From Candidatus Moraniibacteriota bacterium (GTDB lineage: Bacteria > Patescibacteriota > Minisyncoccia > Moranbacterales > UBA1568): a stretch of DNA of 64,000 nucleotides. The translations under genes were made by a program, and so were the position numbers. Shown here in pieces: positions 1 through 27,563 of this stretch. The stretch is from the NCBI GenBank assembly GCA_028711705.1, contig JAQTRS010000001.1, positions 201,657-265,656 on the forward strand, read 5' to 3'. The notes under the pieces are model-generated. The model was not told the origin of the DNA, made no database searches, and was given only the letters and a program-made list of their open reading frames with translations. The first letter of the stretch is position 1. Each line of letters starts with the position of its first letter.

Positions 1-109
1 TTCCATAGTACGATGTTTATGCGCTTTCAATAATGGGAAAAGTAGCGGATTTACGGCACGGATACCTGCGATACCCTCCGTGAAAACAGCGCGTATCCAG
101 CGCCGGCTA

Positions 110-1243: not shown

Positions 1244-1251
1244 AGTGTCTC

Positions 1252-1980
1252 TTATGCTTTTTTGGACGTATGCTTGCGCCACGTTTCGATATCCCTGTGA
1301 TGCCCGGAAAGCAACACCTCCGGAACGCGCCACCCGTTGAACTCTTCGGGTTTCGTATACTGCGGATGCTCCAATACCCCCTCATCGGTATGCGATTCAT
1401 ACACGGCGCTGTCGGTATTCCCCAACACTTCCGGCAAGAGCCTCGCCACCGCGTCCACCACCATCATCGCCGGAAGCTCCCCTCCCGTCAGCACGAAATC
1501 CCCGATGGAGAGCTCCTCATCCACCACATGCTCCGCCACCCGCTCATCCACGCCCTCATAGCGCCCGCACACGAAAATCAACCGGTCATATTTCGCCAAC
1601 CGCACGGCGTCCGCCTGCACGAACCGCTTCCCCTTCGCGGAAAACAAGATGGTTCTCGTCGTCTCGCTTGATTCCTGAGCACCCTCCGCTGTTTGTTGAT
1701 TGCTGTTTAAATCATCTGTGTTACTCGTTAACTGTTGATTGTTGGCTGTTGATTGTTTTACTGCCGTCACGGCCTTGAAAATCGGATTCACCTTAAGCAC
1801 CATGCCGGCCCCCCCGCCATAGGGCGTATCGTCCACCTTCTTATGCTTATCTTCGGTATAATCCCGCAGATTATGCACGACGATATCGATCAAACCTCTC
1901 TCTTTGGCGCGCTTCAAAATCGACTCATTACAATACGAGTCGCAGATATTGGGAAAAATGGTGATAATATCGAATTTCAT
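1252..1980 (-). CDS. trmD: tRNA (guanine37-N1)-methyltransferase TrmD, with an in-frame Q/N/S/T-rich low-complexity insertion
   Basis: [10 protein letters not shown] start, [12 protein letters not shown] and [10 protein letters not shown] motifs. The insertion is encoded by the TGTTGATTG-type tract at about 1690-1760. Confidence 0.9.
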
Positions 1981-2088
1981 ATGCCTTACTATACCACAAT
2001 AAGGCGAAATTTCAAATATTAAAAAGACTCCTCATACCAAAGGTACAAAGAGCCCAAGAGACCAAGTTCAAATACAAAATTCGAAGCG

Positions 2089-2700
2089 TCACACCGGTAT
2101 GCGAGAGAACACTCGGCTACCCGCATCCCACCGGCCACTCCCGCCAAACCACCAGTCATCGACGTCCCACCCACCGTTGCCGGCAAGCCAGTGTACGCTG
2201 ACAACCACGACTCCGTTGAGTACCTTAAGATGGAATATATTGGCGTTGCCATCATTGAGAAGCGCGCCCTCCTTGCCTCCCCATTGTTTCAACAGAAGCC
2301 AAACGATGAGCGCAAGGCCTTCGATCAGTCCAAATTCATAGTCTTTCGGAAGTTCACGACTGATTTCACTGTCCGACAAGGTATCCTTCATATCGAAATA
2401 GTATGCGGTTATCGAACCGATTTTTTCAACGATACCGGTAACGTATTTGAGAACGTTTTTTGTAAAACCCTCCCAAATCCAAAGTCCTTTTCGATCTTTG
2501 AAAAATTCAAAAAAATCAAGGTTTTGCTGCGGATCGGTCGTAACCGAACCAGCGTATCGGAGTTTTTCTGACTGCCATTTTTCGACAGCCTTTTTGCTCA
2601 CATCCTTACCGGTATTGATCGTATCCTGCAATGTTTTTACGGAAAGCTTACCCGTAAACAACAAATAGCTGAAATACAACCATAGTTTTAGTGTTTTCAT
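2089..2700 (-). CDS. secreted hypothetical protein (signal peptide); paralog of the partial ORF at 63461..64000
   Basis: N-terminal signal peptide. Strong GAGGAG RBS at 2705-2712. The C-terminal half aligns to the 63461..64000 protein (GLIEGLALIVWLL-KQW / GLVDGLACIAWLIYKQW). Confidence 0.55.
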   Translation of the reverse strand: MKTLKLWLYFSYLLFTGKLSVKTLQDTINTGKDVSKKAVEKWQSEKLRYAGSVTTDPQQNLDFFEFFKDRKGLWIWEGFTKNVLKYVTGIVEKIGSITAYYFDMKDTLSDSEISRELPKDYEFGLIEGLALIVWLLLKQWGGKEGALLNDGNANIFHLKVLNGVVVVSVHWLAGNGGWDVDDWWFGGSGRWDAGSRVFSRIPV

Positions 2701-2813
2701 GATGACTCTCCTCTACGTTTGAGTCGTTGGGAAAAATGGTGAAATACCACGATTTTTTAAGGATGTAGTCTCCTTGGTTATTTCCTATTTGATTATTAAG
2801 AAACTAACGGCGT

Positions 2814-2842
2814 AGTATACACCCTCTAGCGTATTTTGTCAA
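2814..2842 (-). promoter_or_regulatory. sigma-70 promoter for the 2089..2700 gene (TTGACA-17-TATACT, read on the minus strand)
   Basis: Consensus -35 at 2837-2842, 17-nt spacer, -10 TATACT at 2814-2819. Confidence 0.5.
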
Positions 2843-2921
2843 TGGTCTGTTAAAAATGCTCTATAAAAGCTAAAAATAACTATACATTAAACACTCGGCC
2901 CATTTTTAAAACAGTTGGCAT

Positions 2922-3779
2922 TCAATCCCGAATAATTCCCAATTCCTTAAACCACAATACGGCCTGAGCGACGGGCGCGAAGCTGATGCGATGGATCGGC
3001 GTCGGCCCATAGGTCTTCAGCGCTTCCATATGCACCTTCGTGCCATAGCCCTTGTGTTTCTTGAAGCCGTACTGGGGATACTTTGCATCGTATTCGTTCA
3101 TCATCCGATCACGCGTCACCTTGGCGATAATCGATGCGGCCGCGATGGTCTTGACGATCTTATCGCCGCTCACCACCGTCTCTTGCGGCAAGGAGATATT
3201 GGGAAGTTTCTGATTGCCATCGATCAAAAGCAAAACTTTGCCATTGTCAGGATGACGGTATTGTTGACCCGCCTGCAACGTTTCACGTAGCGATTCGGGC
3301 AGGCTGTTGATTGTTGACTGTTGACTGATGGATCGCCTCAGCGATCCCACCGCTTCCTTCATACCCAAAAACGTCGCCTGCAAGATATTGATCCGATCGA
3401 TAGTTTCGGGATAGATGATTCCCACGCCCACATGGAAGTGCTCCTGTATCAATGCAAACATCTCTTCGCGCTTCTTCTCCGAAATCGTTTTGGAGTCGCG
3501 GATGAATGCGAACTGCTTTTCCAATGCCTCCGGAATCAGGTAATCCTCCCGCTTATAGCACGCCGCCGCAGCCACCACCGGCCCCGCCAGCGGCCCCCGT
3601 CCCGCCTCATCCACGCCCAAAAAAAGCGTCGAGGGATACTTTCGCTTCAGAGCCTGCTCATAGGTAAAATCCGCAAGAGGTGTCGTCATAGGATACAGTA
3701 TAGCATAGCCATCGATTCCCATCCTAAGCAGGTCACCCTGCACGTGGAAGGCCGCATGCAAGAGAGTGTTTTGGCGCAC
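2922..3779 (-). CDS. rnhB: ribonuclease HII
   Basis: GVDEAGRGPLAGPVV catalytic motif and a DSK-containing C-terminal region. Has an in-frame SISQQSTINS insertion encoded by a TTGATTGTTGACTGTTGACTG tract at about 3300-3330. Confidence 0.85.
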   Translation of the reverse strand: MRQNTLLHAAFHVQGDLLRMGIDGYAILYPMTTPLADFTYEQALKRKYPSTLFLGVDEAGRGPLAGPVVAAAACYKREDYLIPEALEKQFAFIRDSKTISEKKREEMFALIQEHFHVGVGIIYPETIDRINILQATFLGMKEAVGSLRRSISQQSTINSLPESLRETLQAGQQYRHPDNGKVLLLIDGNQKLPNISLPQETVVSGDKIVKTIAAASIIAKVTRDRMMNEYDAKYPQYGFKKHKGYGTKVHMEALKTYGPTPIHRISFAPVAQAVLWFKELGIIRD

Positions 3780-4038
3780 GCACTAGCCGGAGTCGCCTTG
3801 TTTTTTTATTCCCTTGCCGCTATACTATAGACAGTAAGGTTGCATAAACTCCCCTGCAGAACCCATGGAGCGATCCGGGCTATGAGGGCAGATATCCTAT
3901 GTTTTCGGTTATTTCTTCCAACTTGGTTTTTACATTGGCCCTTAACCAACTTTTTCAAGGTGGTTTTTTTATGTATCAATCACTGCTACCCACCGATTGT
4001 TTACTGCTCATTGTTGACTGTTAATTGTTTTTTGTTAA

Positions 4039-7000
4039 TTGATTATGTCTTTCACCCATCTCCATGTTCACTCGCACTACAGCCTCCTCACCGCGCCCGC
4101 GAAAATAGAGGATATTTTGGCGCGCTGCAAAGAGCTCGGCATGACATCGGTCGCCCTCACCGACAACAGCAATATGTACGGCGCCGTCGATATCTATGTC
4201 AAAGCCAAAGACACCGGCATCAATGTCATCATCGGCGCTCAGGTCAATGTCTGCAAAGACCTCAATAGCAAGAACAATACCGCCGAAGACCGCCGCCGCT
4301 ACGATCTGGTTCTGCTCGCCAAGAATGAGACGGGCTACAAGAACCTGATGAAGATTATCTCGATCGCGCAGATCGAAGGCTTTTACTATAAGCCGCGCGT
4401 CGACAAGCAGCTCCTCCGGAAGTATCACGAAGGCCTCATCGCCCTCTCCGGATCGATTACCGGCGAAGTCCCCTCGCTCGTCATTATGGGCAACGACACC
4501 CGCGCCCGCGACATCGCCCTCGAATACCAAGACATCTTCGGCAAGGACCATTTTTACCTTGAGATCCAATCGCATCCGGATTACGAAAACCAGCTCCTCG
4601 CCAATGAGGGTCTGATCCAGATTTCCCGCGAGACCGGCATCCCTTTGGTCGCCGCCAACGATGTCCACTACGTCAACAAAGAAGACGCCGAAATCCAAGA
4701 CATCCTCTTGTGCATCCAAAATAACTGGAAAGTGAGCGACGTGAACCGCCTGAGCTTCACCCACCTCGATCTTTCCCTGCGTTCCCCCGAAGAGATGATC
4801 GCGGCCTTCAAAGATACTCCGGAGGCCATCACCAATACCCAGAAAATCGCGGACATGTGCCATGTCAAAATCAGGCTCGGCGAAACGCAGCTGCCGCATT
4901 TCGAAGTGCCGGCCAACTTCAACGCCGAATCCTACCTGCGGCACCTCTGCGAAGAGGGTTTGACCAAACGCTACGGCGAGGCTATCGAACCCAAGCACCG
5001 CGAACGCATGGAATACGAGCTTGGCATCATCGAAAAGACCGGCTTCGCATCCTACTTCCTTATCGTGCAGGACTTCGTCAACTGGGCCAAAAACGCCGGG
5101 GTCATGGTGGGCCCGGGCCGCGGATCGGCCGCCGGGAGCTTCGTCGCCTATCTTACGGGTATCACCAACATGGACCCGATCGAGTACACCCTCCTCTTCG
5201 AGCGATTCCTCAATCCGGAACGTATATCGATGCCCGATGTCGACATGGACTTCGCCGATGATCGCCGCGACGACGTGCTCAACTATGTCCGCGAAAAATA
5301 CGGCCACGATCATGTGGCGCAGATCATCACCTTCGGAACCATGGCCGCGCGCGCCGCTATCCGTGACACCGGCCGCGCCCTGGGATATTCCTATGCCCTC
5401 TGCGACCAGGTCGCCAAGCTCATCCCGATGTTTTCCACCATGAAAGAGGCCCTCGAAGAAGCGGTGGATTTCAAGAAGCTCTATGAATCCGACCCCGAAG
5501 CGCACAAACTCATCGATGTCGCCAAAAACCTCGAAGGTCTCGCCCGTCACGCCTCCATGCACGCCTGCGGCGTCGTGATCACCAAGGACCCCGTCACCGA
5601 ATACACCCCGATCCAAAAGATTTCCGGCTCGCGCGAGGGCATCGTGACCCAGTACGCCTCCTCCACCAAATTCAGCGCCGTGGAAAAGATCGGGCTCCTC
5701 AAGATGGACTTTCTGGGACTCAAAAACCTTACCATCATGCAAAACGCCATCCGCATCATCCGTGCGCTAGGCAAGCTTGACGAACTCATCGAAAGAATCG
5801 GTCTCGATCCGCAAACGGCGTCCATATCGGATATCATGGATCGCCTCCCTATCGATGACGAGAAGACCTATGAGCTCCTCCAAAAAGCGCACACCACCGG
5901 CGTCTTCCAGCTGGAAAGCAATGGTATGAAACGCTATCTGCGCCAACTCAAACCGACCGTCCTCGAAGACATCATCGCCATGGTCGCCCTCTATCGCCCG
6001 GGACCGATGGATTGGATTCCGGATTTCATCGATGGCAAACACGGACGCAAGACCGTCAAATACCTCCACCCGAAACTCGAGCCGATTCTCAGTGCCACCT
6101 ATGGCGTGGCCGTCTATCAGGAACAGGTCATGCAGATCGCCCGGGATCTTGCCGGCTTCACACTCGGCGAAGCTGACGTGCTCCGCAAGGCTATGGGAAA
6201 AAAGATTCTCGAGCTCATTCAGGAGCAGCGCGTCAAATTCGTGGCGCGCTGCGGCGAGCAAGGCATCAGCAAAGAGATCGCCGAGGGTGTCTTCGCCTTC
6301 ATCGAGCCGTTCGCCGGCTACGGATTCAACCGATCCCATGCGGCGTGCTATGCGCTCATCGGCTACCAGACCGCGTACCTGAAGGCGCACTACCCGGCAT
6401 CCTTCATGGCCGCCCTCCTCACCTCCGACCAGGACACGACCGACCGTATCGCCATCGAGGTCAATGAGTGCCGCGAAATGGGTATCGAAGTTTTGCCACC
6501 GGACGTCAACGAAAGTTTCGAGGAATTCGCCGTGGTACCGGATGATGCGGGCACCGAACGCATCCGCTTCGGACTCAATGCTATCAAGAACGTGGGCAAG
6601 GTCGCCGCCGAAGAAATCGTCAAAGAACGCAAACGCGGTGGAAAGTTCCGCTCCATCGCCGATTTCGTCGAACGTGTCCAAACCAAAGACCTCAACAAAA
6701 AATCTCTCGAAGCCCTGTCCAAAGTGGGCGCCCTCGATGCCTTCGGCGAACGCACCCAGATTCTCGCCAGCATCGACAAGATCCTCAAGCACTCCCGCAA
6801 TCTGCAGAAGATCAAAGAAACGCACACCGACAGCCTCTTCGGCCACATGCCTATCGAAACTTCCGAATTGCGCCTCGAAACCGTCCCGCCTATCGACAAG
6901 AAACAAAAGCTCAAATGGGAAAAGGAGCTCCTCGGCCTCTATGTCAGCGATCACCCTGTCAGTGATTTCAAAGAATACTTCGAACAGATCACGGTCCCGA

Positions 7001-12770: not shown

Positions 12771-13187
12771 CTAGCCCTCCCTCAAAAAATTCTCCAACAC
12801 CTCGGTCAGATCCTCAAGATTCTCATAGGCCTGCACCTCGATATTGGCATTGCCGGCAAGCATGGCCGAGACCCGCTTCCCCGCTCCAAGGCGATAGATG
12901 CACAGCACCGGCTTCTCCATCGTTTCCGCTCGAGCGATCTCATAGCCCACGCCCAAACTCGGCGTACTCACTTCGGCCACGACAACATCCGCTTGCGACA
13001 GCCAGCTCATGTCCCGCTCATAGATCTCTTGGTCGAGCATCTCCTGCTCACCCTCTTCCGAAAGGGACTTTTTACCGAGATGCTCCGTCGCCACCATTCC
13101 GTAACTACCGAGCAGCTTGATGATATCCGCATAAAGCAGCGAGTCCTCGCGTCCGCCTCGTACCAATGCTGCAAAATAGATATTCAT
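12771..13187 (-). CDS. 2'-deoxynucleoside 5'-phosphate N-hydrolase (DNPH1/Rcl) family protein
   Basis: MNIYFAALVRGGRED...QADVVVAEVSTPSLGVGYEIA closely matches the DNPH1/Rcl family, which belongs to the nucleoside 2-deoxyribosyltransferase fold. Confidence 0.75.
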   Translation of the reverse strand: MNIYFAALVRGGREDSLLYADIIKLLGSYGMVATEHLGKKSLSEEGEQEMLDQEIYERDMSWLSQADVVVAEVSTPSLGVGYEIARAETMEKPVLCIYRLGAGKRVSAMLAGNANIEVQAYENLEDLTEVLENFLREG

Positions 13188-13199
13188 AATTTCTCAGTA

Positions 13200-13628
13200 T
13201 TAAAACTTTCCCGTGCTGCCGAAGCCGTTCTCGCCGCGATCCGCCTCCCCTAATTCATCAACTTCCTCCACCTCGCACAACTCCACTTTCTGAATGAGAA
13301 GTTGGGCGATCTTGTGTCCGACTTCGATCGCCACATCCTCATCGCCCAGGTTTTTCACGATCACCTGGATCTCACCGCGATAGCCCGCATCGATCACACC
13401 ACCCATAATGGTGATGCCTGACTTGAGAGCCAGGCCGGACTTATCCCACACCAAACCGACGAAACCGGAAGGGATGGCCACAGCGATGCCGGTTTTGACA
13501 CCCGCGCGGTCCCCCGGTTTCAGAACGATAGTTTCAACGGAATACAGATCCACCCCCGCGTCATCCAAATGCGCTCGGGAAGGAATTTTCGCCTCCGGAT
13601 GGAGTTTTTTTACTTGCAGATGTGTCAT
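13200..13628 (-). CDS. dut: dUTP diphosphatase
   Basis: AGVDL, GLALKSGITIMGGVIDAGYRGE and GFGSTG motifs. Confidence 0.9.
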   Translation of the reverse strand: MTHLQVKKLHPEAKIPSRAHLDDAGVDLYSVETIVLKPGDRAGVKTGIAVAIPSGFVGLVWDKSGLALKSGITIMGGVIDAGYRGEIQVIVKNLGDEDVAIEVGHKIAQLLIQKVELCEVEEVDELGEADRGENGFGSTGKF

Positions 13629-13675
13629 AAGAATATATACGTCTATTGCTATTAAATCTTCGATACTTCCCTATT

Positions 13676-14281
13676 TTAAACCATTTTTTCAATAAGAGCA
13701 ACCAAATGCCGGTGAACATCCTCAATAGGTTGATTGGCATTTGCCACCGTCCAGCCATACTTATGTGCCAAGAGAATATGGAAGTTTTTGCAGATCGCGA
13801 TACGTTCGCTTTCCATTTCGTTACGGTGATCCTTTTCGATAGCAGTATCGAAACGATGCCCGTGCATCAGAATCGATATATCCGGTTCCATTGCAGCCTT
13901 ATTTATTTCCTCCAGGTATTCAATATCCGAGCCCCAGGTCAAACCCCACGCCATACCCGTCCCCTTATAGTCCTCCGCCACGATCCACTCCCCCGCCTCA
14001 AGCCTCGCCCGAAGCTCCGGCTCATAGCGAGTGCGATTGTCCGCATACAGCTTCTGCAGCTCATCCGTTGTCTTAGGATTCTCCTCGCGAAACTTCGGAT
14101 CCCTCAAATATTTATAGATAAACGGCCCCTCTGGTTCCAGGTCATATACCGGCACCTTAAGCCGACTCGCCTGCTTACCTTGCGACTGCAAATATTCCAC
14201 TAGCAAATTCGTCTGCGTTGTTTTTCCAATACCATTCACACCATAGACCGCTACTAGTTTTCCTTTTTGTGGTTGTTTCAT
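13676..14281 (-). CDS. tmk: thymidylate (dTMP) kinase-like P-loop kinase
   Basis: LVAVYGVNGIGKTTQ P-loop and a Tmk-like fold. The ATG start is at 14279-14281 (MKQPQ). Confidence 0.65.
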   Translation of the reverse strand: MKQPQKGKLVAVYGVNGIGKTTQTNLLVEYLQSQGKQASRLKVPVYDLEPEGPFIYKYLRDPKFREENPKTTDELQKLYADNRTRYEPELRARLEAGEWIVAEDYKGTGMAWGLTWGSDIEYLEEINKAAMEPDISILMHGHRFDTAIEKDHRNEMESERIAICKNFHILLAHKYGWTVANANQPIEDVHRHLVALIEKMV

Positions 14282-14312
14282 ATACAATACATTACAATTC
14301 TAACAAACATCT

Positions 14313-14801
14313 TTATTTTTCTAAAACTACAAATTCATACCGATATATGCCATTATCTCCACTCTTTCGACTGATAACTTTCTGAAATATCGTTTCATAT
14401 TCGGGAAAGAAAACATCTGCATCAAATTCACCCTCCACTAAAGTCAGGTAGAGCCTGTCCGCAAGACCAATGAACTGCTTGTACACCGATCCGCCCCCAA
14501 TGATAAAGACATTCTCTTTCTCAGTTTCACGAGCCGTTGCAAGAGCTTCATCTAACGATCCGACAACTACGCATCCGGAAGGCTGGAATGTGGGATCGAG
14601 AGTAAGCACAATATTTGTCCGATGAGGCAATGGTCGCCCGATGGATTCATACGTTTTTTGTCCCATAATCACAGCACATCCGGTCGTCATTTCCCGAAAA
14701 TGGTGCATATCTTCAGGAATATTCCAGAGCAAAGCATTGTCTTTCCCAAGCTCCCTCTTTTTTCCGATAGCAGCGATGATATTGATACGAGGATAATTCA
14801 T
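14313..14801 (-). CDS. folA: dihydrofolate reductase
   Basis: INIIAAIGKKRELGKDNALLWNIPEDMHHFREMT and IMGQKTYESIG motifs. Start trimmed to MNYPRINII with an AAGGAA RBS. Confidence 0.85.
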   Translation of the reverse strand: MNYPRINIIAAIGKKRELGKDNALLWNIPEDMHHFREMTTGCAVIMGQKTYESIGRPLPHRTNIVLTLDPTFQPSGCVVVGSLDEALATARETEKENVFIIGGGSVYKQFIGLADRLYLTLVEGEFDADVFFPEYETIFQKVISRKSGDNGIYRYEFVVLEK

Positions 14802-14824
14802 AGAGGGTTTCCTTAAAATAAAAG

Positions 14825-14850
14825 GGCGCGTTTCAAAAAAGAAACGCGCC
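14825..14850 (-). terminator. perfect 10-bp hairpin (GGCGCGTTTC-AAAAAA-GAAACGCGCC) followed by a U-tract between thyA and folA; putative attenuator
   Basis: Located between the thyA stop (14864) and the folA RBS. There is no room for a separate folA promoter. Confidence 0.5.
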
Positions 14851-14863
14851 GCACAACCATACA

Positions 14864-15781
14864 TTATACTGCTATCGGCGCATTAATGGCATCATGCGAT
14901 TGATATCCTTCCAAAGTAAAATCCTCAACTTTGAAATCAAAGATATCTTTCACATCCGGATTGAGCTTCATGATTGGGAGAGAATATGGCGTACGCGTCA
15001 ATTGCAGAGCGACCTGATCCATGTGATTGCTATACAGATGCACATCACCACCCGTCCATACAAAATCCCCGACCTTAAGATCGCACACCTGAGCCATCAT
15101 CATCGTAAGCAGTGCGTACGAGGCGATATTGAAAGGTACGCCCAAAAAAGTATCACAACTTCTCTGGTACAACTGACATGAAAGTTTTCCATCCGCCACA
15201 TAAAACTGAAAAAAACAGTGACAGGGTGGCAAACCAGACTTAGCCATCTCATCGATATCCGCCACATTCCAGGCAGAGACAATCATTCTTCGCGAATCAG
15301 GCGATTTCTTGATCTGATCGATCACCTGAGTGATCTGATCAATATGACGACCATCAGGTGTCGGCCAACTCCTCCACTGATACCCATACACTGGGCCAAG
15401 CTCGCCATACTTGCGAGCAAAATCATTATCAGCTTTTATCTTTTTGATAAACGCAGCGATACCATCCCTCCACTCGTCAGAATCCTCCCGAGGCACCTTT
15501 TGTCCCATTGATTGCACATGCGCCTTATATGGCCAAGCATCCCAAATATGCACATTTCTATCTGCAAGGTATTTGATATTCGTATCGCCTTTCAAAAACC
15601 AGATAAGCTCCTCGATAATCCCTCGAATAAACATTTTCTTCGTCGTTACCAAGGGAAACCCTTGTGACAAATCAAATCGAGTTTGATAGCCAAAAACACT
15701 CCTGGTTCCCGTTCCGGTTCGATCCCCTTTTATCACGCCTTCTTCTGAAATTTTATGGAGAAGATCTAAATACTGTTTCAT
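14864..15781 (-). CDS. thyA: thymidylate synthase (ThyA, long form)
   Basis: [32 protein letters not shown]...[10 protein letters not shown] motifs. The Asn in PFNIAS indicates dUMP specificity. Confidence 0.92.
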
Positions 15782-15868
15782 AGCGATTACCCCGTAGGCA
15801 AGATTGAAAGAACTTTATTCTATCTTATAGAACCCTTCAATCCTAACGGAAAATATATTAAAAGTCAA

Positions 15869-16429
15869 CTAAAAATTCTTATGCATCGCCGAGGCCTTGG
15901 GCCTCATATCCCCATGATACTTGCTATTCAACCCCTCCGATCCATACGGACGCTCGCACGGGGACGACAGGTACTCGAAGGCCATCTGTGCGATGGGCAT
16001 CTTGTAATACAGCTTGATCGGCAACGGTCCGGCATTGAACAATTCCAGCGTCATCTTGAGCGAATTACCCGGATCCAGATACCCGGCCGTCGTATGAATG
16101 ATCAAACCCAAACGTCCCAGAGAACTTTTGCCCTCCAGCCGTCCGACCAATCTGTTCGACACGCCCGTCTCCTCCAGGATCAGTCCGAGCGCGAATTCGC
16201 CGGGATGCAGGATGAACGGCTTATTGGGCTTAAGCTCCACCGGCGTCATCAGATCCTCCGCAGGGGCCTTGACGTCGATAATGAAGTTCTCGATGGTATT
16301 GAATACCAGAAATTGCTTGTCCAGATGCAGGTCCACGCTGGCTGGCTGCAAATGCTTCCGTGAAAACGGCTTGAGCGTGATTTCACCTCCCTTAATCTCT
16401 TTTGCGATGTCCTTATCCGATAAAATCAT
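15869..16429 (-). CDS. dcd: dCTP deaminase
   Basis: MILSDKDI start and a dUTPase-like fold with Dcd motifs. Confidence 0.88.
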   Translation of the reverse strand: MILSDKDIAKEIKGGEITLKPFSRKHLQPASVDLHLDKQFLVFNTIENFIIDVKAPAEDLMTPVELKPNKPFILHPGEFALGLILEETGVSNRLVGRLEGKSSLGRLGLIIHTTAGYLDPGNSLKMTLELFNAGPLPIKLYYKMPIAQMAFEYLSSPCERPYGSEGLNSKYHGDMRPKASAMHKNF

Positions 16430-16589: not shown

Positions 16590-17279
16590 TTACATCTTAA
16601 CCTTGATGCCAGGACCCATGGTCGAGCAGACAGCGACCGACAGAACGTATCGCTTCTTCAAAACCTCGGGCTTCGCCTTCAAAACGACGTCGAATACCGC
16701 CTGGAAGTTATCCTGAAGCTTCTGGACATCGAAAGACAAGCGTCCGATAACCTGGTGGATGTTTCCGCTGTCATCGTTCTTGAAGCTCACCTTGCTTCCC
16801 TTCTTCAAGGCATCCACGACTTCCTTCACCTTGGCTGTGACGGTTTCGGTCTTCGGGTTCGGCATCAAGCCTTTCGGTCCGAGGATTTTCGCCACCATAG
16901 CGAGCTTAGGCATCATTTCGGGCGTAGCCACCACGACGTCGAAATCGACACCGGCAAGGATTTTCCCATTCTTGATTTCCTCAACCAACTCCTCGCCGCC
17001 GATCAGATCGGCGCCGGCCTCATTGGCGTCAGCCATCTTAGTCGATGTAATGACAGCCACCTTCTTTATGCGACCGACACCGTGCGGCAAGATAGCCGTA
17101 GAGCGGACCTGCTCATCACCCTTCTTCGGGTTGATACCGAGCTTGATATGCACCTCGACAGACTCGTCGAATTTGGCCAAGGCATTCGCCTTCACGAAAG
17201 CCAGAGCCTCTTCCAAAGAATACTCCTTGTCCTTCTCGATCTTCTCGACGACTGCGACGTATTTTTTTCCTCGTTTCAT
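16590..17279 (-). CDS. rplA: 50S ribosomal protein L1
   Basis: MKRGKKY start (trimmed). Conserved L1 sequence. Confidence 0.93.
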   Translation of the reverse strand: MKRGKKYVAVVEKIEKDKEYSLEEALAFVKANALAKFDESVEVHIKLGINPKKGDEQVRSTAILPHGVGRIKKVAVITSTKMADANEAGADLIGGEELVEEIKNGKILAGVDFDVVVATPEMMPKLAMVAKILGPKGLMPNPKTETVTAKVKEVVDALKKGSKVSFKNDDSGNIHQVIGRLSFDVQKLQDNFQAVFDVVLKAKPEVLKKRYVLSVAVCSTMGPGIKVKM

Positions 17280-17351
17280 AGTGATTGTCGTGGTACGAAC
17301 GCCCCGCCAAGCGAAGCTCCCACACATTAAATAAAATTACCTTCAATATTG

Positions 17352-17777
17352 TTATTCTGTAATCTTGATTCCCATCGAACGGGCGGTTCCGGCAACGATT
17401 CGCATCGCCATATCCACATCGTTCGCGTTCAGATCCTCCATCTTCGTCTCCGCTATCTCTCGCAACTGGTCCTGGGAAACGGTTCCCACCTTCTCTTTCA
17501 AAGGATTAGCAGCGCCCTTGGCTGTCTTGGCCGCTTTTTTCAAAAGTTCGGCTGCAGGAGGAGTCTTGAGTACGAACGTGAACGTACGGTCATCGAACAC
17601 GGTGATTTCCGCAGGAATGATATCGCCCATCTTATCGCGGGTCGCGTCATTGAACTTTGCGCAGAAATCCTGGATATTAAGGCCGTGCTGACCTAAGGCC
17701 GGTCCGACCGGAGGAGCTGGATTCGCCTTTCCTCCAGGAATTTGCAACTTGATAACCGTCTTGATATTCTTTGCCAT
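17352..17777 (-). CDS. rplK: 50S ribosomal protein L11
   Basis: [29 protein letters not shown] motif. Confidence 0.95.
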
Positions 17778-17843
17778 AATCGTGTGTGCTGCGAAATGAG
17801 AAGCTTTCGGTCGTTTCGCGTATTAATATGAACTTTCAATAAA

Positions 17844-18389
17844 TTATACTTTCTTGATCTGGAGGAAGTCAAGCTCCACAGGCGTTTCCCGTCCGAAGAG
17901 AGACACCAATACCTTGACCTTGCCCTTCTCCTCGTCCACCTCCTGAATCTTTCCTTCGAAATTCTTGAACGGGCCTTCCGTGATCTTGACCGGATCATTC
18001 ATCTTGACATCCATCTTATATTTCGGCTCTTCCACGCCCATACGCTTCTTGAGCGCTTCGATCTCACGAGGGTCGACCGGCGTCGGCGTCGTGCCGAGCC
18101 CGATGAATCCGGTCACGTTCGGGGTATTTCGCACCACATACCATGAGGCATCGGTAACGATCATATCCACCAGCACATATCCCGGGTAAATGCGTTCCTC
18201 AACCACGGTCCGCTTGCCCGCCTTGATCTTGATCTTCTTTTCCTTCGGGACTATGACATCGAAGATAAGTTCCTGCATATCCATAGACTCGATACGCTGC
18301 TTGAGGTTTCGGGTCACATTGTCCTCATAACCGGAATAGGTATGGAGCACATACCAAGCGCGTCCGTGATGTTGAGTTTGCTTTGCCAT
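17844..18389 (-). CDS. nusG: transcription termination/antitermination factor NusG
   Basis: WYVLHTYSGYE NGN domain and a C-terminal KOW domain. Confidence 0.92.
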   Translation of the reverse strand: MAKQTQHHGRAWYVLHTYSGYEDNVTRNLKQRIESMDMQELIFDVIVPKEKKIKIKAGKRTVVEERIYPGYVLVDMIVTDASWYVVRNTPNVTGFIGLGTTPTPVDPREIEALKKRMGVEEPKYKMDVKMNDPVKITEGPFKNFEGKIQEVDEEKGKVKVLVSLFGRETPVELDFLQIKKV

Positions 18390-18422
18390 ACGATGTAATT
18401 AAATATGTTTAAACCTGAGAGA

Positions 18423-18608
18423 CTACTTGACAATAAACGTTTTTAGGGCATAACTGAAGCCATAATCCAATCCTCCGAGGAAGATTGCCAGGGCGAAAGT
18501 CAGACCGACAACCAACATCGTGCTGCGAATAATCTGGTCTTTTGTCGGCCAAGTCACCTTGGTCAGCTCGATTTTCGCTTCTTTTATAAAAGTGAAGATG
18601 TTTCGCAT
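18423..18608 (-). CDS. secE: preprotein translocase subunit SecE
   Basis: 61-aa single-TM protein immediately upstream of nusG, with a KVTWPTKDQ motif. Confidence 0.8.
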   Translation of the reverse strand: MRNIFTFIKEAKIELTKVTWPTKDQIIRSTMLVVGLTFALAIFLGGLDYGFSYALKTFIVK

Positions 18609-18739
18609 AGCGATAATAATTGTATCCTACTACCGATAATTACGCTTGGATAAGCCATATTATCGATATATAAGAATTTGGGTTTTTTAAAAAGCCCTCG
18701 AAGGCTTTTCTATTGACCAGTGTACCGGAAGAGCGGGTT

Positions 18740-18765
18740 CTTGTCAAACACGCGGTCTTGACAAG
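18740..18765. promoter_or_regulatory. inverted repeat CTTGTCAA-N10-TTGACAAG within a cluster of five TTGACA-like hexamers (18714-18827)
   Basis: 8-bp arms that are exact reverse complements. TTGACA copies fall at 18758, 18801 and 18822, giving spacings of 43 and 21 bp. Confidence 0.4.
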
Positions 18766-18954: not shown

Positions 18955-19917
18955 ATGAAAAAGCTTATTGCGACACTCGTATTTTTTGTTTTATTCGGTT
19001 TTAAATCAGCCTCTGCTGATTTCACCGGATCGCCTCGTCCGCCTATGCCGACAGGCTCTGATGGTTTCACGCATTATATCAGCGCATCCGGTATTGAATA
19101 TGTGTATTTTTTCAATACACAGGAGGACTATCAATATTTTGTAGACCAAGGACATGCAGGAACATTACATGTTTTTGCAAATAACAACGGTCCTGCTCTC
19201 TGGTATTACCACGCTCGGAAAGTATATGAGCTGGTTAGTGGAAATTGGGAAGAGCGAAGTCAAACTTTCTATCCCAATGATGCTGATCACATGCTGGACA
19301 GCTCCAAGACATTGCCTGAACAGATTTGTTCAACGACTGATCTACGGGCAGGCTATAATCAATACTTTCCCGGATACTATGGGTTTTCAGTCAATCCTGC
19401 TTATGCTGAAGTCGTGATGACAGCGAATTGCTCTTATACCCCGCCCGCTCCATCGTATCATTTTCCTCTCAATGGCTCTATGGAAAACAGCACCATTCTT
19501 TTAGGATTCGGTGATGATTGGGTCGCGTCTTGTGATGGACAAGTGATGAAGCATACCGGAATTGACATTGCAGCCAATGAATATGAGACTGTTTATGCCG
19601 CCGAATCCGGTATTGTAAAAGTAGCTCAAATAAACGAAGATTACGGTGGATGGGTTACATTGGAACATAACAACGGTTCGTATACGACTACCTATTGGCA
19701 TATTATACCCAGCGTTTCAGTAAATGATATGGTATCAAGGGGCGATCCGATTGGTGAAGTCACAGATTATGGCGCAACAGTCCATCTTCACTTCGGATTA
19801 CGAACAGGCGCTTACTCAAATACATCGAACCGAGGAAGATTACCTCAATCAACTTGCGGAGGCGATCCATCCTTTCCGGAAAACTTTGTAGACCCCGAGA
19901 CACTTTCCTTTGAATAG
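18955..19917 (+). CDS. secreted M23-family (LytM-type) metallopeptidase with an N-terminal domain of unknown function
   Basis: Signal peptide. The C-terminal HTGIDIA...DYGGWV...HLHFGL motif pattern is HxxxD...HxH. Confidence 0.8.
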   Translation: MKKLIATLVFFVLFGFKSASADFTGSPRPPMPTGSDGFTHYISASGIEYVYFFNTQEDYQYFVDQGHAGTLHVFANNNGPALWYYHARKVYELVSGNWEERSQTFYPNDADHMLDSSKTLPEQICSTTDLRAGYNQYFPGYYGFSVNPAYAEVVMTANCSYTPPAPSYHFPLNGSMENSTILLGFGDDWVASCDGQVMKHTGIDIAANEYETVYAAESGIVKVAQINEDYGGWVTLEHNNGSYTTTYWHIIPSVSVNDMVSRGDPIGEVTDYGATVHLHFGLRTGAYSNTSNRGRLPQSTCGGDPSFPENFVDPETLSFE

Positions 19918-19934
19918 AACCATACTCAAAAGAA

Positions 19935-19971
19935 AAAACGACGGACTCTCTATATAAGAAGTCCGTTTTTT
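19935..19971 (+). terminator. intrinsic terminator (ACGGACT...AGTCCGT-TTTTTT)
   Basis: Hairpin plus a T6 tract after the M23 gene. An A-tract precedes it, so it may be bidirectional. Confidence 0.65.
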
Positions 19972-19999
19972 CCTGCTCGAAGCATAACGACAAAAAATT

Positions 20000-20953
20000 T
20001 TATTTTATATTTCCCAGCACCTCAAATGACCCATCAAATTGATTTTGATAAGACACAATATTGTTTTGAAAATTGAATTTGAATATAAAGGGTGATCTAT
20101 TGAATGGGTCATCTCTTTCAGCATCATTATCCATATGTGAAAAATTAACTAAATACGAATTATCCTCAAAAACATCCTTTTTTTGAGTTACATGTATTCC
20201 ACTTTCCTGAAATTTTCCTAATTCTAAATTTTTGCATATTTGGGTTTCCTTTTTTGAGATATTTGCTATAGATCCTGCAATATCAATATTGTTTATAGTT
20301 ATTTGATTGGCTTTGTATATTTTTCCACAAAAAGACACCTTTTCAATTTTATAAATATTGACGGTCGATAACATTTTGCCAAAGGTATCTTCTAATTGGT
20401 TATTACCGGCATAATCTATAATTATAAGCTTATCTTCGTTCTGAATTAAAATTATATACATTGTCCCTCCAGCAAAAGCATCCGTATAGGTTAACTGTTC
20501 TGCGAGAAATTCATTTAATTTGATTCGGGCCTGTTTGAAGTTCTGTAGTGTATCTAACTTATTTTTGGCAATATATTGTTCAATTGTTTTCTGTTCTTTG
20601 GAAATATTGAAATGGAGAAGGGTTGATCCCTCATTTTTTTGATTTGGATCATCGGGACTTAGATAGTCAAAAACAATTTTATCATCTGAGTTACTGATAT
20701 ATAATTCTTGGGGATATTTTATTTCTAAGCCAAAACTTTCATTTTTATAGTCTTTCCAGCTATTAAAGTCACTTATTTTAAAATTATCCCATGGATTTTT
20801 ACTCATCAATTGATCTTTCCGCGAATTCATATCAGACATTTGCAAAGTTGAACGTGCTTGTTTTTCATACTTCCAAACAAACACCCCTACTGTAATCGCA
20901 ACAATTACAACAAGAGCTATCCCTACACCGATGGAGACCTTTTTATTATTCAT
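20000..20953 (-). CDS. hypothetical membrane-anchored protein (N-terminal TM helix, large extracytoplasmic domain), strongly AT-rich
   Basis: 317-aa ORF at roughly 30% GC against a background near 52%. No recognisable domain. Confidence 0.5.
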   Translation of the reverse strand: MNNKKVSIGVGIALVVIVAITVGVFVWKYEKQARSTLQMSDMNSRKDQLMSKNPWDNFKISDFNSWKDYKNESFGLEIKYPQELYISNSDDKIVFDYLSPDDPNQKNEGSTLLHFNISKEQKTIEQYIAKNKLDTLQNFKQARIKLNEFLAEQLTYTDAFAGGTMYIILIQNEDKLIIIDYAGNNQLEDTFGKMLSTVNIYKIEKVSFCGKIYKANQITINNIDIAGSIANISKKETQICKNLELGKFQESGIHVTQKKDVFEDNSYLVNFSHMDNDAERDDPFNRSPFIFKFNFQNNIVSYQNQFDGSFEVLGNIK

Positions 20954-24897: not shown

Positions 24898-25815
24898 ATG
24901 TCGTTGCGCGGTATTATTAAGACCGCTCCTATGGCTACACGAAAAATAGTTCCGCACCTGTGGTTCGATACGGAGGCAAAAGAGGCTGCCGCGTTCTATA
25001 CGTCGCTTTTCGAGGATTCGAGAATCGAAAACATCACGACGATCACAGACACGCCCTCCGGAAATTGCGATATCGTCAGTTTCAAGCTTTCCGGACAAGA
25101 TTTCATGGCGATAAGCGCCGGGCCGGTTTTCAAACTCAATCCGTCCATATCGCTGTTCGTCGTCTTCGATACCGAGGCGGACATCGAAGCGGCCTGGAAC
25201 AAGCTTATCGACGGCGGAAAGGCCCTGATGGCCTATGACACCTATCCTTGGGCGAAAAAATACGGATGGCTGCAGGATAGATACGGACTCTCATGGCAGC
25301 TTTCCTGGAGCGATTATCATAAGATGAAGCAGAAAATCACCCCCTCGCTCATGTTCACGGGAGCTGTGGCCGGGAAAGCGAAGGAGGCGATCGATATGTA
25401 TACGGGCATTTTTCCCGATTCGAACATAGAGGTGACGGTGCCGTATGAGGAGAGTGATGACGACACGCCCGGATTTATCAAACACTCCCGATTCACGCTC
25501 AACAGACAGGGATTCATAGCGATGGACAGCTCCCTGCAGCACGGATTCGGTTTCAACGAAGCGCTATCGCTCATGGTAAACTGCGATACCCAAGAAGAGA
25601 TCGACTACTATTGGGAAAAATTATCGGCGGTTCCCGAAGCGGAGCAATGCGGTTGGCTCAAGGATGCCTATGGCGTGTCATGGCAGATCGTTCCATCAAG
25701 CATGAATGAAATGATGCACAGCGGCGACGCGGAAAAAACCGTACGGGTAACGCAGGCATTCCTGAAGATGAAAAAATTCGACATAGCGAAACTGGAAGAG
25801 GCCGCTCGAGGCTAG
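24898..25815 (+). CDS. VOC/glyoxalase-superfamily protein with two tandem PhnB-like (3-demethylubiquinone-9 3-methyltransferase-type, PF06983-like) domains
   Basis: KIVPHLWFDTEAKEAAAFYTSLF and a second repeat KITPSLMFTGAVAGKAKEAIDMYTGIF. Confidence 0.65.
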   Translation: MSLRGIIKTAPMATRKIVPHLWFDTEAKEAAAFYTSLFEDSRIENITTITDTPSGNCDIVSFKLSGQDFMAISAGPVFKLNPSISLFVVFDTEADIEAAWNKLIDGGKALMAYDTYPWAKKYGWLQDRYGLSWQLSWSDYHKMKQKITPSLMFTGAVAGKAKEAIDMYTGIFPDSNIEVTVPYEESDDDTPGFIKHSRFTLNRQGFIAMDSSLQHGFGFNEALSLMVNCDTQEEIDYYWEKLSAVPEAEQCGWLKDAYGVSWQIVPSSMNEMMHSGDAEKTVRVTQAFLKMKKFDIAKLEEAARG

Positions 25816-25852
25816 ATACGATTCGCAAGAGGCCTATAATCTGATTGCTTGA

Positions 25853-26419
25853 TCAGCTGTATATCCTGCGCCACATTGAGCAAATCATTCGCCAACGGAT
25901 TGTCCGGCCAGCATTCCAGAACGGCGCTGAAACCACCAACTGGTGATAGATCACTTTTTCTTTCGGGGCATTGAACCGCTCGAAGATGGTTTCGTCGTGC
26001 CGTTTGTAATCGTCGATCGATTCGGAGACATTGCTCAATATATCGGCAGATTTCACCAAGAGCGAATCGTGTGAAAAATGCCTGACATACTCGAGCGCTG
26101 CTTGCTTGCGTTCATCCCAAGAAAGCTTCTTGTCTTGCTCGGTCACGCTCAAGACGATCTGTGCCACATTCCTACCGAAGCGCTCTTCAAGCATCGCCTC
26201 GGTAACTTTCTTTTCGGAAATGCTGTCCTCGATGGTGTCGTGCAGGATGCCGGCCACCACCACATCCTCGGAAGCCCCTGCGCTCGCCAGGATGATTCCG
26301 GCCGTGAGCGGATGCGTGATATAGGCGACGCTCTTCCCTTTGCGGGTCTGTTTCTGGTACACATCATGCGTCTTAATGGCGAACTTGATCGCCTTGCGTA
26401 TCTTGTTCGTATAAACCAT
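25853..26419 (-). CDS. HD-domain protein, Mesh1/SpoT-like (p)ppGpp hydrolase family
   Basis: HPLTAGIILASAG...AGILHDTIED, an H..HD metal-binding motif of RelA/SpoT-type HD domains. Confidence 0.65.
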   Translation of the reverse strand: MVYTNKIRKAIKFAIKTHDVYQKQTRKGKSVAYITHPLTAGIILASAGASEDVVVAGILHDTIEDSISEKKVTEAMLEERFGRNVAQIVLSVTEQDKKLSWDERKQAALEYVRHFSHDSLLVKSADILSNVSESIDDYKRHDETIFERFNAPKEKVIYHQLVVSAPFWNAGRTIRWRMICSMWRRIYS

Positions 26420-26477
26420 AGGTGTTTCTATTTAATGATAGCACGCTCGTATTTTCCTGTTGCGCAGTGAGATAGCG

Positions 26478-26873
26478 TCAATCTCGCGTATCGACTTTGA
26501 AATTGACATAAAAGTTGAGAAAATAATTCCAAATACCGGCGAAGGATGCGACAGCGATGCGGGACAAAAGATAGGGCCAACCGAATTTCGCGACCAGAAT
26601 ATACATGAGGCCGATGACAATCAGCACGCCGCCCAAAGCGATACTGCCAAAGATGATATACCCTTCCCGAACACCACGGAGCGTCTCGGAAAAAACGAAT
26701 TTTCGGGCCAGCCAATAATTGAGCGAAACAGCTATAGTGAAGCCCACCGCCGCCGAAACGAGATAATTCCACCCGAACACATCGGTCAAAACATACAGCA
26801 AACACAGGTCCACGAGAAACGTCGACCCTCCCGTCAGCGAATACTTAAGAAACCGTTCGACCTGATATATCAT
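26478..26873 (-). CDS. GtrA-family membrane protein (second copy)
   Basis: TGGSTFLVDLCLLYVL...LNYWLARKFVF GtrA signature. Confidence 0.7.
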   Translation of the reverse strand: MIYQVERFLKYSLTGGSTFLVDLCLLYVLTDVFGWNYLVSAAVGFTIAVSLNYWLARKFVFSETLRGVREGYIIFGSIALGGVLIVIGLMYILVAKFGWPYLLSRIAVASFAGIWNYFLNFYVNFKVDTRD

Positions 26874-26882
26874 AAGAAGGCT

Positions 26883-27323
26883 TTACTCCAATGAAAGATA
26901 CTGCGTCGGCTTCAGGATGGCCGCAGGATTCGTCTTCCACTCATCGGAGACATCCGCATAAAGCTCAAGCTCATTGCCGTCGGGATCGAGGATATAGAGG
27001 CTGTGGGTGACACTGTGATCGGCGGATCCGACGATAGTGACGCCTTTTTCCAGAAGCTCCTTATACGCCTGCTTCACGCTTTCCGTTCCATCCCCTATCT
27101 TGAACCCGATATGGTACAATCCCGGCTCAACACCGCGCTTCACCTTGGGCGGGCCCCCGATCTCGATCAGCAGCAATTCATGATGCGTGCGTCCCGAAGA
27201 AAAGAGGGCCGTCTGGCGATCGCAGGCGATTTGCGTGAACCCGAGCGTATCACGGTAGAAGTCCGCCAAGCGGGTCAGATTGGTCACATACAGCACGATA
27301 TGGCCCAGTTCCTTGATATGCAT
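26883..27323 (-). CDS. VOC-family protein (glyoxalase/bleomycin-resistance/extradiol dioxygenase fold)
   Basis: Start trimmed to MHIKELGHIVLYVTNL. Paired beta-alpha-beta-beta-beta modules with metal-ligand H/E residues. Confidence 0.65.
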   Translation of the reverse strand: MHIKELGHIVLYVTNLTRLADFYRDTLGFTQIACDRQTALFSSGRTHHELLLIEIGGPPKVKRGVEPGLYHIGFKIGDGTESVKQAYKELLEKGVTIVGSADHSVTHSLYILDPDGNELELYADVSDEWKTNPAAILKPTQYLSLE

Positions 27324-27563
27324 AGGGTATAAAAAATATCGGATTATGGCGGCGCGTTCACGAAAAATAGCCTCGCTTAATACTTCCATCTTACAACATC
27401 CGCGCCGCTTAGCCAAACTTGCAGAGTTTTACAGGAAGCATATAATGAGAGAAGAAACTACCACATATCGTATGGTTTCTTAATTTGCTAACACAAGACG
27501 ATCATCAAAAACATGTTTGCAGGGGGAGTTTATTTATAAAGTGCCCATAAAAACACAACCATT

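Follow-up and report, generated by a model that had tools for sequence, protein, structure and literature searches.

Introduction

Human DNPH1, a 2′-deoxynucleoside 5′-phosphate N-hydrolase, is a current cancer-drug target, and competition between this hydrolase and a kinase was reportedly found in human cancer cells in 2021. DNPH1 removes 5-hydroxymethyl-dUMP (hmdUMP), preventing a phosphorylation that involves DTYMK and the incorporation of 5-hydroxymethyldeoxyuridine (hmdU) into DNA; the products are the base and deoxyribose 5-phosphate (dR5P), formed via a covalent enzyme-dR5P intermediate (PMC10603095). In this study, we analyzed a 64,000-nt stretch of the genome of a Candidatus Moraniibacteriota bacterium (hereafter, the window), a member of the Candidate Phyla Radiation (CPR), in which the gene for a DNPH1-like protein is located in a string of genes for dTTP synthesis. 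We estimate, at a probability of roughly 60%, that this string is a dTTP supply operon that also polices the pyrimidine deoxynucleotide pool, with the DNPH1-type enzyme destroying uracil-type aberrant deoxynucleoside monophosphates (dNMPs) before the kinase.

Several described systems resemble parts of this locus. Phage DmtZ-DutZ combines an N-glycosidase of the DNPH1 fold, which acts on the dNMP pool, with a dUTPase-family enzyme beside or fused to it; the DmtZ triad contains an Asn, and the enzyme has a proline of the transferase type, is specific for dAMP/Z, and serves the synthesis of a modified genome (PMC12884076). The window protein, in contrast, has no detectable sequence similarity to the phage proteins, and the window Dut is a standard dUTPase. 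MilB and BcmB, the CMP and hydroxymethyl-CMP N-glycosidases of antibiotic pathways, belong to the same superfamily and act on nucleoside monophosphates with a 5-hydroxymethyl pyrimidine. However, their match to the window protein is marginal (E 0.7–0.8), and they are specific for ribonucleotides, bind the phosphate via Arg, have Glu in place of H56, and are encoded in secondary-metabolite clusters. Lactobacillus-type nucleoside 2-deoxyribosyltransferases (NDTs) share PF05014, a Rossmann-like fold, and a glutamate nucleophile with the window protein, whereas they use nucleoside substrates and transfer the sugar to another base; the window protein has phosphate-binding serines and no significant match to them.

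In E. coli, the genes of the dTTP route are scattered in the genome. The enterobacterial dcd-dut route has the same dCTP→dUTP→dUMP→dTMP chemistry as the window, and phage dNTP-synthesis clusters likewise keep such genes together. In the window, the genes stand as a single string after the ribosomal-protein genes, and a predicted dNMP hydrolase is among their products. Our full-text literature searches found no report of prokaryotic DNPH1 orthologs, of their clusters in CPR, or of the kinase family with an EDY motif described below, which is no proof that such a report does not exist.

A string of dTTP genes that includes a DNPH1-family gene

A previous interpretation made from the bare sequence (the sequence-only reading) described seven genes on one strand with small spacers. 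This was borne out; the strand is the minus strand, and the profile identities agree:

16429–15869, minus strand: dcd, dCTP deaminase (dCTP→dUTP); TIGR02274 equivalog, 177 bits (cut-off 92.8), and PF22769
15781–14864, minus strand: thyA, thymidylate synthase (dUMP→dTMP); TIGR03284, 469 bits
14801–14313, minus strand: folA, dihydrofolate reductase, 162 aa; PF00186, 171 bits, residues 27–182 of the long open reading frame (ORF)
14281–13676, minus strand: thymidylate-kinase-like P-loop kinase, EDY subfamily; PF02223, 55.7 bits, and TIGR00041, 57.9 bits (cut-off 83.25)
13628–13200, minus strand: dut, trimeric dUTPase (dUTP→dUMP + PPi); TIGR00576, 153 bits, and NF001862, 150 bits
13187–12771, minus strand: DNPH1-family gene, predicted 2′-deoxynucleoside 5′-phosphate N-hydrolase, 138 aa; PF05014, 51 bits, without an NCBIfam model
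12743–11241, minus strand: gatB, subunit B of an amidotransferase, closing the string; NF004012, 634 bits

The spacers are 87 nt (dcd-thyA), 62 nt (thyA-folA), 31 nt (folA-kinase), 47 nt (kinase-dut), 12 nt (dut-DNPH1-like), and 27 nt (DNPH1-like-gatB), and dcd follows rplA after 160 nt. The longest ORF of folA is 183 aa and reads through a hairpin. We placed the start at 14801 (M22), because residue 27 is the first in the Pfam match and the public annotation likewise gives 162 aa.

The conversion of dCTP to dTMP via dUTP and dUMP and the recycling of folate are encoded in the string. The sequence-only reading had extended the route to dTDP, a step that relies on a kinase without the canonical catalytic Arg. 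The last gene, gatB, is functionally unrelated to dTTP synthesis. Apart from the points concerning the hydrolase and the kinase, the operon is ordinary housekeeping; all of its enzymes belong to known families, and it is no new kind of system.

The sixth gene encodes a member of the DNPH1 family

We searched all PDB sequences with the product of the sixth gene using phmmer. Rat Rcl (E = 1.3e-32) and human DNPH1 (E = 1.3e-29) were matched, and the E values to the remaining deoxyribosyltransferase-superfamily members of known structure were all ≥ 0.46. The window protein is 51% identical to the rat enzyme over 115 residues and 48% identical to the human enzyme, and it contains the motifs GGREDSLLY, QADVVVAEV, and PSLGVGYE.

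In human DNPH1, Y24, D80, and E104 form the catalytic triad, and S98 and S128′ of the partner subunit bind the phosphate. The base is contacted by H56 (base O2 and leaving group) and by R30 together with D73, and is stacked by I29 and I76; E55, located in an LTEHV motif, activates the hydrolytic water (PMC10603095). These residues were mapped by MAFFT alignment of the human and rat enzymes with 200 prokaryotic members. The full-length human sequence used in the alignment was validated by the residues described in the literature, each of which is found at its published number, and by the PDB alignment. All 11 functional positions are kept in the window protein: Y24, I29, R30, E55, H56, D73, I76, D80, S98, E104, and S128′ correspond to Y4, V9, R10, E35, H36, D52, I55, D59, S77, E83, and S107, respectively, with the replacement of I29 by Val as a conservative change. 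Among the 200 prokaryotic members, these positions are at least 97% conserved, except for that of D73 (82%).

The catalytic triad (Y4, D59, and E83) is at least 98% conserved. The phosphate-binding serines S77 and S107 occur in 199 and 200 of the 200 members, respectively, so the serine contributed by the partner subunit (S107) is also retained in the window protein. Its TEH motif reads ATEHL, in which E35 and H36 are found in 195 and 199 members. The Arg30-Asp73 pair and the Ile29/Ile76 surroundings of a uracil-type base are present as R10, D52, V9, and I55. An AlphaFold2 monomer model (mean predicted local distance difference test score, pLDDT, 84.5; predicted template modeling score, pTM, 0.82) was compared with the PDB using Foldseek, and the top 50 hits were all DNPH1/Rcl (template modeling score, TM, 0.75–0.86).

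On the basis of the E values, the 11 functional residues, and the fold, the sixth gene encodes a genuine DNPH1-family member, as the sequence-only reading proposed, and its product is predicted to be a dNMP N-hydrolase. It shares the fold, the catalytic triad, the phosphate-binding serines, the TEH motif, and the base-contacting Arg and His with mammalian DNPH1/Rcl. In addition, CPR members are linked to thymidylate kinase, the enzyme that human DNPH1 pre-empts. It differs from the mammalian enzymes in being prokaryotic and encoded in an operon with dut and a kinase, in lacking their N- and C-terminal tails, and in having Val at I29; it is known here from its sequence and model.

The protein carries the NCBI and JGI names of an NDT, and it does match PF05014 (51 bits). 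That it is an ordinary NDT is nevertheless scarcely credible. It did not group with these enzymes, since its E values were ≥ 0.46 to the solved transferases and 1e-32 to DNPH1; it has the hydrolase-type pair of phosphate-binding serines and the TEH motif, and no NDT was found among the top 50 Foldseek hits. The database name is a Pfam-level label that is probably wrong for the DNPH1-like subfamily.

A homology search with the window protein identified at least 2,792 sequence clusters, and a scan of one genome per species identified a DNPH1-like relative in at least 587 prokaryotic species. Carriers occur, among others, in CPR, DPANN, Chloroflexota, Bacteroidota, Acidobacteriota, Deltaproteobacteria, and Methanocellaceae, and also in cultured haloarchaea (Natrialba); CPR and DPANN are rich in members of the family. 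The protein had been described as eukaryote-like. This description does not hold, given at least 587 prokaryotic species with relatives and the identity statistics, by which any special eukaryote-likeness was rejected: rat Rcl is 46–62.5% identical (median 54%) to 80 retrieved prokaryotic proteins, whereas the window protein is 51% identical to rat Rcl and 45–61% identical (median 51.6%) to the same 80. Several members outside CPR, from Natrialba, Anaerolineales, and Pyrinomonadaceae, resemble the mammalian enzyme more closely than the window protein does. Across domains, the family evolves uniformly slowly.

DNPH1-like genes are clustered with nucleotide-pool genes in CPR

We analyzed the neighborhoods of DNPH1-like genes in 80 diverse genomes, comprising 23 from CPR and 57 others, with some loci truncated. 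L069, the record of which is titled Bdellovibrionales, was counted as CPR because it is syntenic with the window and its NusG is 89% identical to that of the window; the title looks like a binning or taxonomy error. A conserved neighbor across the whole family was considered and rejected. The same-strand immediate neighbors in the 80 genomes were heterogeneous (115 Pfam families among 126 neighbors) with no dominant partner, and an association holds inside CPR only. The numbers of genomes with a gene of interest within 5 kb of the DNPH1-like gene were as follows:

dut: 8 of 23 in CPR, 0 of 57 in others; Fisher p = 1.7e-5
tmk: 7 of 23 in CPR, 0 of 57 in others; Fisher p = 7.7e-5
NUDIX: 6 of 23 in CPR, 0 of 57 in others; Fisher p = 3.4e-4
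any searched pathway gene (dut, tmk, NUDIX, thyA, thyX, SHMT, and other cluster genes): 10 of 23 in CPR, 1 of 57 in others; Fisher p = 6e-6

Six CPR loci contain co-directional clusters:

L040: SHMT-CYTH-NUDIX-NUDIX-kinase-DNPH1-NUDIX-tmk-x-NUDIX-kinase-dut
L044: NUDIX-DNPH1-tmk-NUDIX-dut, with thyA-folA 3 kb away
L074: SHMT-DNPH1-tmk-x-NUDIX-dut
L037: CYTH-DNPH1-ASCH-kinase-tmk-dut
L014: DNPH1-NUDIX-tmk-x-dut
L035: DNPH1-tmk...dut

The recurring partners are enzymes that convert aberrant dNTPs to dNMPs (NUDIX, MazG, and Dut) and kinases that return dNMPs upward, and a hydrolase of selected dNMPs fits between them. Genes for CYTH proteins (triphosphate tunnel metalloenzymes) also recur in the CPR dTTP/DNPH1 clusters, for example before dcd in L085 (6121–6798) and directly before the DNPH1-like gene in L037 (7408–7998).

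A thymidylate-kinase-like family with an EDY motif

Thymidylate kinases (TMPKs) are understood to have a conserved and essential phosphate-clamping arginine in the motif DR(Y/H/F). The window kinase scores above the Pfam cut-off (PF02223) and below the NCBIfam cut-off for dTMP kinase, and its PGAP name is hypothetical protein. In alignments with Plasmodium TMPK and the canonical tmk products of L069 and L082, DRY is replaced by EDY, and FPxR by PVYD (in the stretch YPVYDL). The P-loop is GVNGIGKTT. Close family members are 65–81% identical; the motif AEDY is invariant in them, as are many other residues, among them the lid-region arginines R145 and R155. The AlphaFold2 model of the kinase had a pLDDT of 92, and the top 50 PDB hits were all TMPKs, with a TM of 0.86 to the Plasmodium and human enzymes. 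The window kinase shares the P-loop, the overall fold, the PF02223 match, and the operon slot (as in L082 and L069) with canonical Tmk/DTYMK and differs in EDY, YPVYDL, and the score below the TIGR00041 cut-off.

An exhaustive search through 1.84 billion representatives identified 171 relatives of the kinase at E ≤ 1e-10. Among 115 full-length sequences (114 matches and the window kinase), EDY was found in 81 and E(N/G/S)Y in 13, while DRY was found only in the 10 weakest. The named sources are CPR (Moran-, Magasanik-, Peregrini-, and Gracilibacteria, and Absconditabacterales) and Nanoarchaeota. Kinase-dUTPase fusions were found in at least 10 clusters, with either domain first and on contigs as long as 372 kb, together with a kinase-DHFR fusion (P0270) and a kinase-MazG fusion (P0243). 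The kinase is also fused to a DNPH1-like domain, with the kinase first in P0274, P0391, P0295, P0339, and P0246 and the hydrolase first in P0267. These hydrolase domains keep the residues Y, D, E, and S98, and the five of the six that were compared with the window DNPH1-like protein by blastp all matched it (1e-11 to 2e-18). The kinases that adjoin DNPH1-like genes in CPR are of the DRY, NRY, EMY, or EDY type, and the operon slot of the window kinase is occupied by a DRY tmk in L082, a canonical tmk in L069, and an EDY kinase in L084. As the simplest reading, the EDY kinases would be functional thymidylate kinases with a relocated catalytic arginine.

The operon slot is conserved in relatives

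Four relatives (L069, L082, L084, and L085) share the slot rplA-[dTTP genes]-dut-DNPH1-gatB. Their gene order is secE-nusG-rplK-rplA-dcd-...-dut-DNPH1-gatB, which is preceded by ligA-gatC-gatA-x on the records of L082, L084, and L085 only; miaA comes next after gatB in these three, and dnaE and rnhB lie farther on in L085 and in L083, a second contig that encodes the same DNPH1-like protein as L082. The identities of L082 to the window are 92% for nusG, 89% for rplK, 73% for rplA, 83% for dcd, 76% for thyA, 63% for folA, 71% for dut, 72% for DNPH1, and 75% for gatB. In the relatives, the identities of the operon genes track those of the flanking housekeeping genes.

Single genes in the slot vary. 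In L085, dcd (41%) and thyA (54%) are more divergent, and a CYTH gene is present. In L069, a 432-aa ThyX (4438–5736, plus strand; PF02511 in two stretches) takes the place of thyA-folA; downstream of it are two dNMP-kinase-like genes of the AAA_17/18 type and a canonical tmk. The ThyX is a non-orthologous displacement inside the conserved operon. An extra P-loop kinase of approximately 185 aa (AAA_17/AAA_18, also matching PF21448, the T4-type DNMK family) is encoded between folA and tmk in the relatives:

L082, 8131–8688
L084, 8239–8859
L085, 8962–9516
L069, 6315–6872

Neither the AAA_17/18 kinase gene nor a second, canonical tmk was found in the 64-kb window; the window lineage has lost the former. 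The position and function of the slot are conserved while single genes turn over. The best reading is that the operon is chromosomal and vertically inherited in Moranbacteria. Of the two origins offered by the sequence-only reading, a chromosomal operon for thymidylate supply and sanitation is favored by the shared slot and by the CPR clustering with NUDIX, dut, and tmk.

The thyA and folA genes differ in composition from the rest of the string. The GC content at third codon positions (GC3) is 0.45 for thyA and 0.40 for folA, compared with 0.63–0.72 for dcd, dut, DNPH1, gatB, and rplA (window median 0.63; 10th percentile 0.47), and this dip is not present in L082, L084, or L085. Among the operon genes of this genome, only these two look compositionally foreign. 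The 1.5-kb patch (14313–15781) may have been replaced recently by sequence from another bacterium of lower GC content. The thyA-folA spacer contains one further feature:

14850–14825, minus strand: terminator-like GC-rich hairpin and T-run; 10-bp stem with 7 GC pairs, CTTTTATTTT tail; in the 62-nt spacer between thyA and folA

The hairpin was not seen in L084, the one relative scanned, and it had no match in Rfam. It may act as an attenuator or a partial terminator, or be left over from the acquisition of the patch. A promoter-like TATAAT lies just upstream of it (14863–14868).

Proposed function and alternatives

We propose the following mechanism. NrdD, encoded elsewhere in the window, would make dCTP, Dcd would deaminate it to dUTP, Dut would convert dUTP to dUMP, and ThyA would methylate dUMP to dTMP, with FolA regenerating tetrahydrofolate. 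The thymidylate-kinase-like enzyme would then phosphorylate dTMP in a predicted dTMP kinase role. The DNPH1-like enzyme would cut the glycosidic bond of hmdUMP, and possibly of surplus dUMP, to give the free base and dR5P. In this way, aberrant dNMPs would be removed irreversibly before the neighboring kinase sends them towards DNA. A gatekeeper at the dNMP level is proposed because the kinase, dut, and DNPH1-like genes of the window, the CPR clusters, and the fusions reproduce the pairing of human DNPH1 and DTYMK. CPR organisms are understood to rely heavily on salvaged nucleotides. These nucleotides may include modified bases, and the need for gatekeeping may therefore be acute in CPR.

More broadly, and only tentatively, CPR bacteria and DPANN archaea may share a dNMP gatekeeping module in which an EDY kinase, a DNPH1-type hydrolase, and dUTPase/NUDIX/MazG pyrophosphatases are clustered and fused. 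If this is true, the competition between kinase and hydrolase in human cells would be an ancient prokaryotic quality-control step, thousands of prokaryotic proteins of the DNPH1-like subfamily named as NDTs would be dNMP sanitizers, and catalysis by the EDY kinases would rely on a new arrangement. The operons and fusions of CPR and DPANN provide genomic evidence for the pyrimidine-dNMP role proposed for human DNPH1 and offer a possible view of how scavenging CPR organisms may keep their dNTP pools clean. For annotation, the clusters and species counted above are labeled as nucleoside transferases although they have all of the active-site residues of human DNPH1. The small bacterial and archaeal orthologs may serve mechanistic work on DNPH1, and the arginine-less kinase family is widespread, now called hypothetical, and directly testable in its chemistry.

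Several points weigh against the proposed policing of the pyrimidine pool. The substrate of the hydrolase is suggested by conserved residues and context only, and rat Rcl was reportedly first described as preferring purine dNMPs. The class III ribonucleotide reductase encoded in the window suggests an anaerobe, in which little oxidative hmdU should form, so the source of an aberrant dNMP is puzzling. The last step of the pathway is uncertain because the kinase does not have the DRY arginine, and a terminator-like hairpin sits between thyA and folA. Regarding the comparative evidence, CPR membership was taken from record titles, the Fisher test ignores kinship, and some of the fusions could be gene-calling errors. 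In addition, the context signal does not generalize, because the neighbors outside CPR are unrelated.

The most serious alternative, which we consider unlikely, is a catabolic or salvage role, in which the DNPH1-like enzyme would break down dNMPs from foreign DNA to dR5P for carbon and energy and to bases for re-use, and its place in the operon would reflect nucleotide economy. In favor of this role, the organism belongs to CPR, in which, as in DPANN, the family is abundant; outside CPR, the gene is not tied to any fixed context of nucleotide synthesis; and base and dR5P are exactly the products of the human enzyme (PMC10603095). However, no deoC, phosphopentomutase, nucleoside phosphorylase, or phosphoribosyltransferase was found among the neighbors examined, and the recurrent partners are pool-cleaning enzymes (NUDIX, MazG, and dut) and kinases. 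A base exchange like that of DmtZ is improbable. By such an exchange, dR5P would be moved from a dNMP to another base, such as uracil or thymine, to obtain pyrimidine dNMPs from salvaged purine dNMPs. The phage enzyme, of the DNPH1 fold and beside or fused to a Dut-like enzyme, hydrolyzes dAMP and transfers dR5P (PMC12884076), the chemistry of DNPH1 passes through a covalent enzyme-dR5P intermediate (PMC10603095), and the window gene begins 12 nt after dut. Against this, the window protein keeps E35, the equivalent of the human E55 that activates water for hydrolysis, and it shows no detectable sequence similarity to the phage proteins, with only E of approximately 1e-4 in PHROGs.

An old phage-derived acquisition, the other origin suggested by the sequence-only reading, is very unlikely. 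Sets of thyA, folA, dcd, dut, and tmk are common in phages, and each of these genes is represented by a family in PHROGs; moreover, thyA and folA fall well below the window median in GC3, with the hairpin unseen in L084 between them. However, homologous operons with a vertical pattern occupy the same slot in four relatives, their identities track those of housekeeping genes, and the flanks consist of housekeeping genes without phage genes. The composition anomaly is confined to thyA-folA, and a swap from another bacterium explains it equally well. ThyA has thousands of phage matches, which are not diagnostic because all are ≤ 62% identical, below the 75–76% to the CPR relatives. The DNPH1-like protein had no tblastn match in 50,697 phage records, was found in 4 of 2.9 million viral contigs of IMG/VR at approximately 41% identity, and matched phage NDT families in PHROGs at the E value given above.

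One of the four viral contigs was examined (L089; IMGVR_UViG_3300045988_179256, 42–6411). Its DNPH1-like gene lies approximately 1 kb downstream of genes for a WYL/WCX regulator and two restriction proteins of the modified-DNA-dependent GmrSD type; the surroundings are host-like (glycosidase and WecG genes) and look like a host defense island. Type I restriction genes flank DNPH1-like genes in 2 of approximately 80 genomes. The enzyme may be linked to the clearing of modified nucleotides after restriction of modified phage DNA. An anti-phage defense system, such as a nucleotide-depleting dCTP deaminase, was considered for the window operon and rejected: PADLOC defense profiles gave no match for dcd, thyA, folA, dut, or the DNPH1-like gene, and the kinase match (E approximately 3e-4) was noise.

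Flanking genes and transcription signals

The following features surround the string:

18719–18747, minus strand: promoter-like site TTGACA-17-TACACT, a consensus match only, upstream of secE; possible start of a long transcription unit
18608–18423, minus strand: secE, ORF
18389–17844, minus strand: nusG, ORF
17777–17352, minus strand: rplK, ORF
17327–16590, minus strand: rplA, ORF
11222–11192, minus strand: strong intrinsic-terminator-like hairpin, 13-bp stem then TTTTTTT, located 19 nt past gatB, where the transcription unit probably ends
27564–29771, plus strand: nrdD, class III ribonucleotide reductase with ATP-cone; PF13597, 657 bits, and PF03477, 70 bits
30394–31101, plus strand: nrdG-like radical-SAM activase; PF04055, 71.6 bits, and PF13353

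The Pfam families of secE, nusG, rplK, and rplA are found in the public annotation and in the relatives. These four genes (16590–18608) are co-directional, lie directly upstream of the dTTP genes, and have the same order in L069, L082, L084, and L085. A single long transcription unit from secE to gatB is plausible because a terminator-like hairpin follows gatB and a promoter-like site precedes secE, and both signals are also found in L084, in which the promoter-like site is TTGACA-18-TACACT, also upstream of secE, and an equivalent terminator is located 3′ of gatB. Co-transcription is suggested here by consensus matches only. An Rfam scan of 10.8–19 kb at E ≤ 1 for regulatory RNA gave one chance-level match only, so that no riboswitch accounts for the hairpin between thyA and folA.

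The class III ribonucleotide reductase genes noted by the sequence-only reading, nrdD with an ATP-cone and nrdG, were confirmed by the Pfam matches and lie approximately 11 kb from the operon. Just upstream of nrdD (24898–27416) are genes for three proteins: one of 305 aa with two 3-demethylubiquinone-9 3-methyltransferase/glyoxalase-like domains, one with an HD_4 domain, and a further one with a glyoxalase fold. The rest of the neighborhood is ordinary chromosome (ftsW, trmD, rnhB, dnaE, miaA, dnaX, an M23 peptidase gene, and ribosomal genes).

The gatCAB genes are split in this lineage. In the relatives, gatC-gatA is upstream of secE (L082, 1112–3010; L084, 1337–3236; L085, 948–2780), and gatB is approximately 7 kb downstream, past the ribosomal and dTTP genes. 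Within the 64-kb window, gatC and gatA are absent, and an M23 peptidase gene is located upstream of secE in their stead. This gene (GC3 0.37) and an adjoining 317-aa ORF without a Pfam match (GC3 0.27), at 18955–20953, have the most deviant composition of the window. The two may have been inserted from a foreign source just in front of secE, where the relatives carry gatC-gatA.

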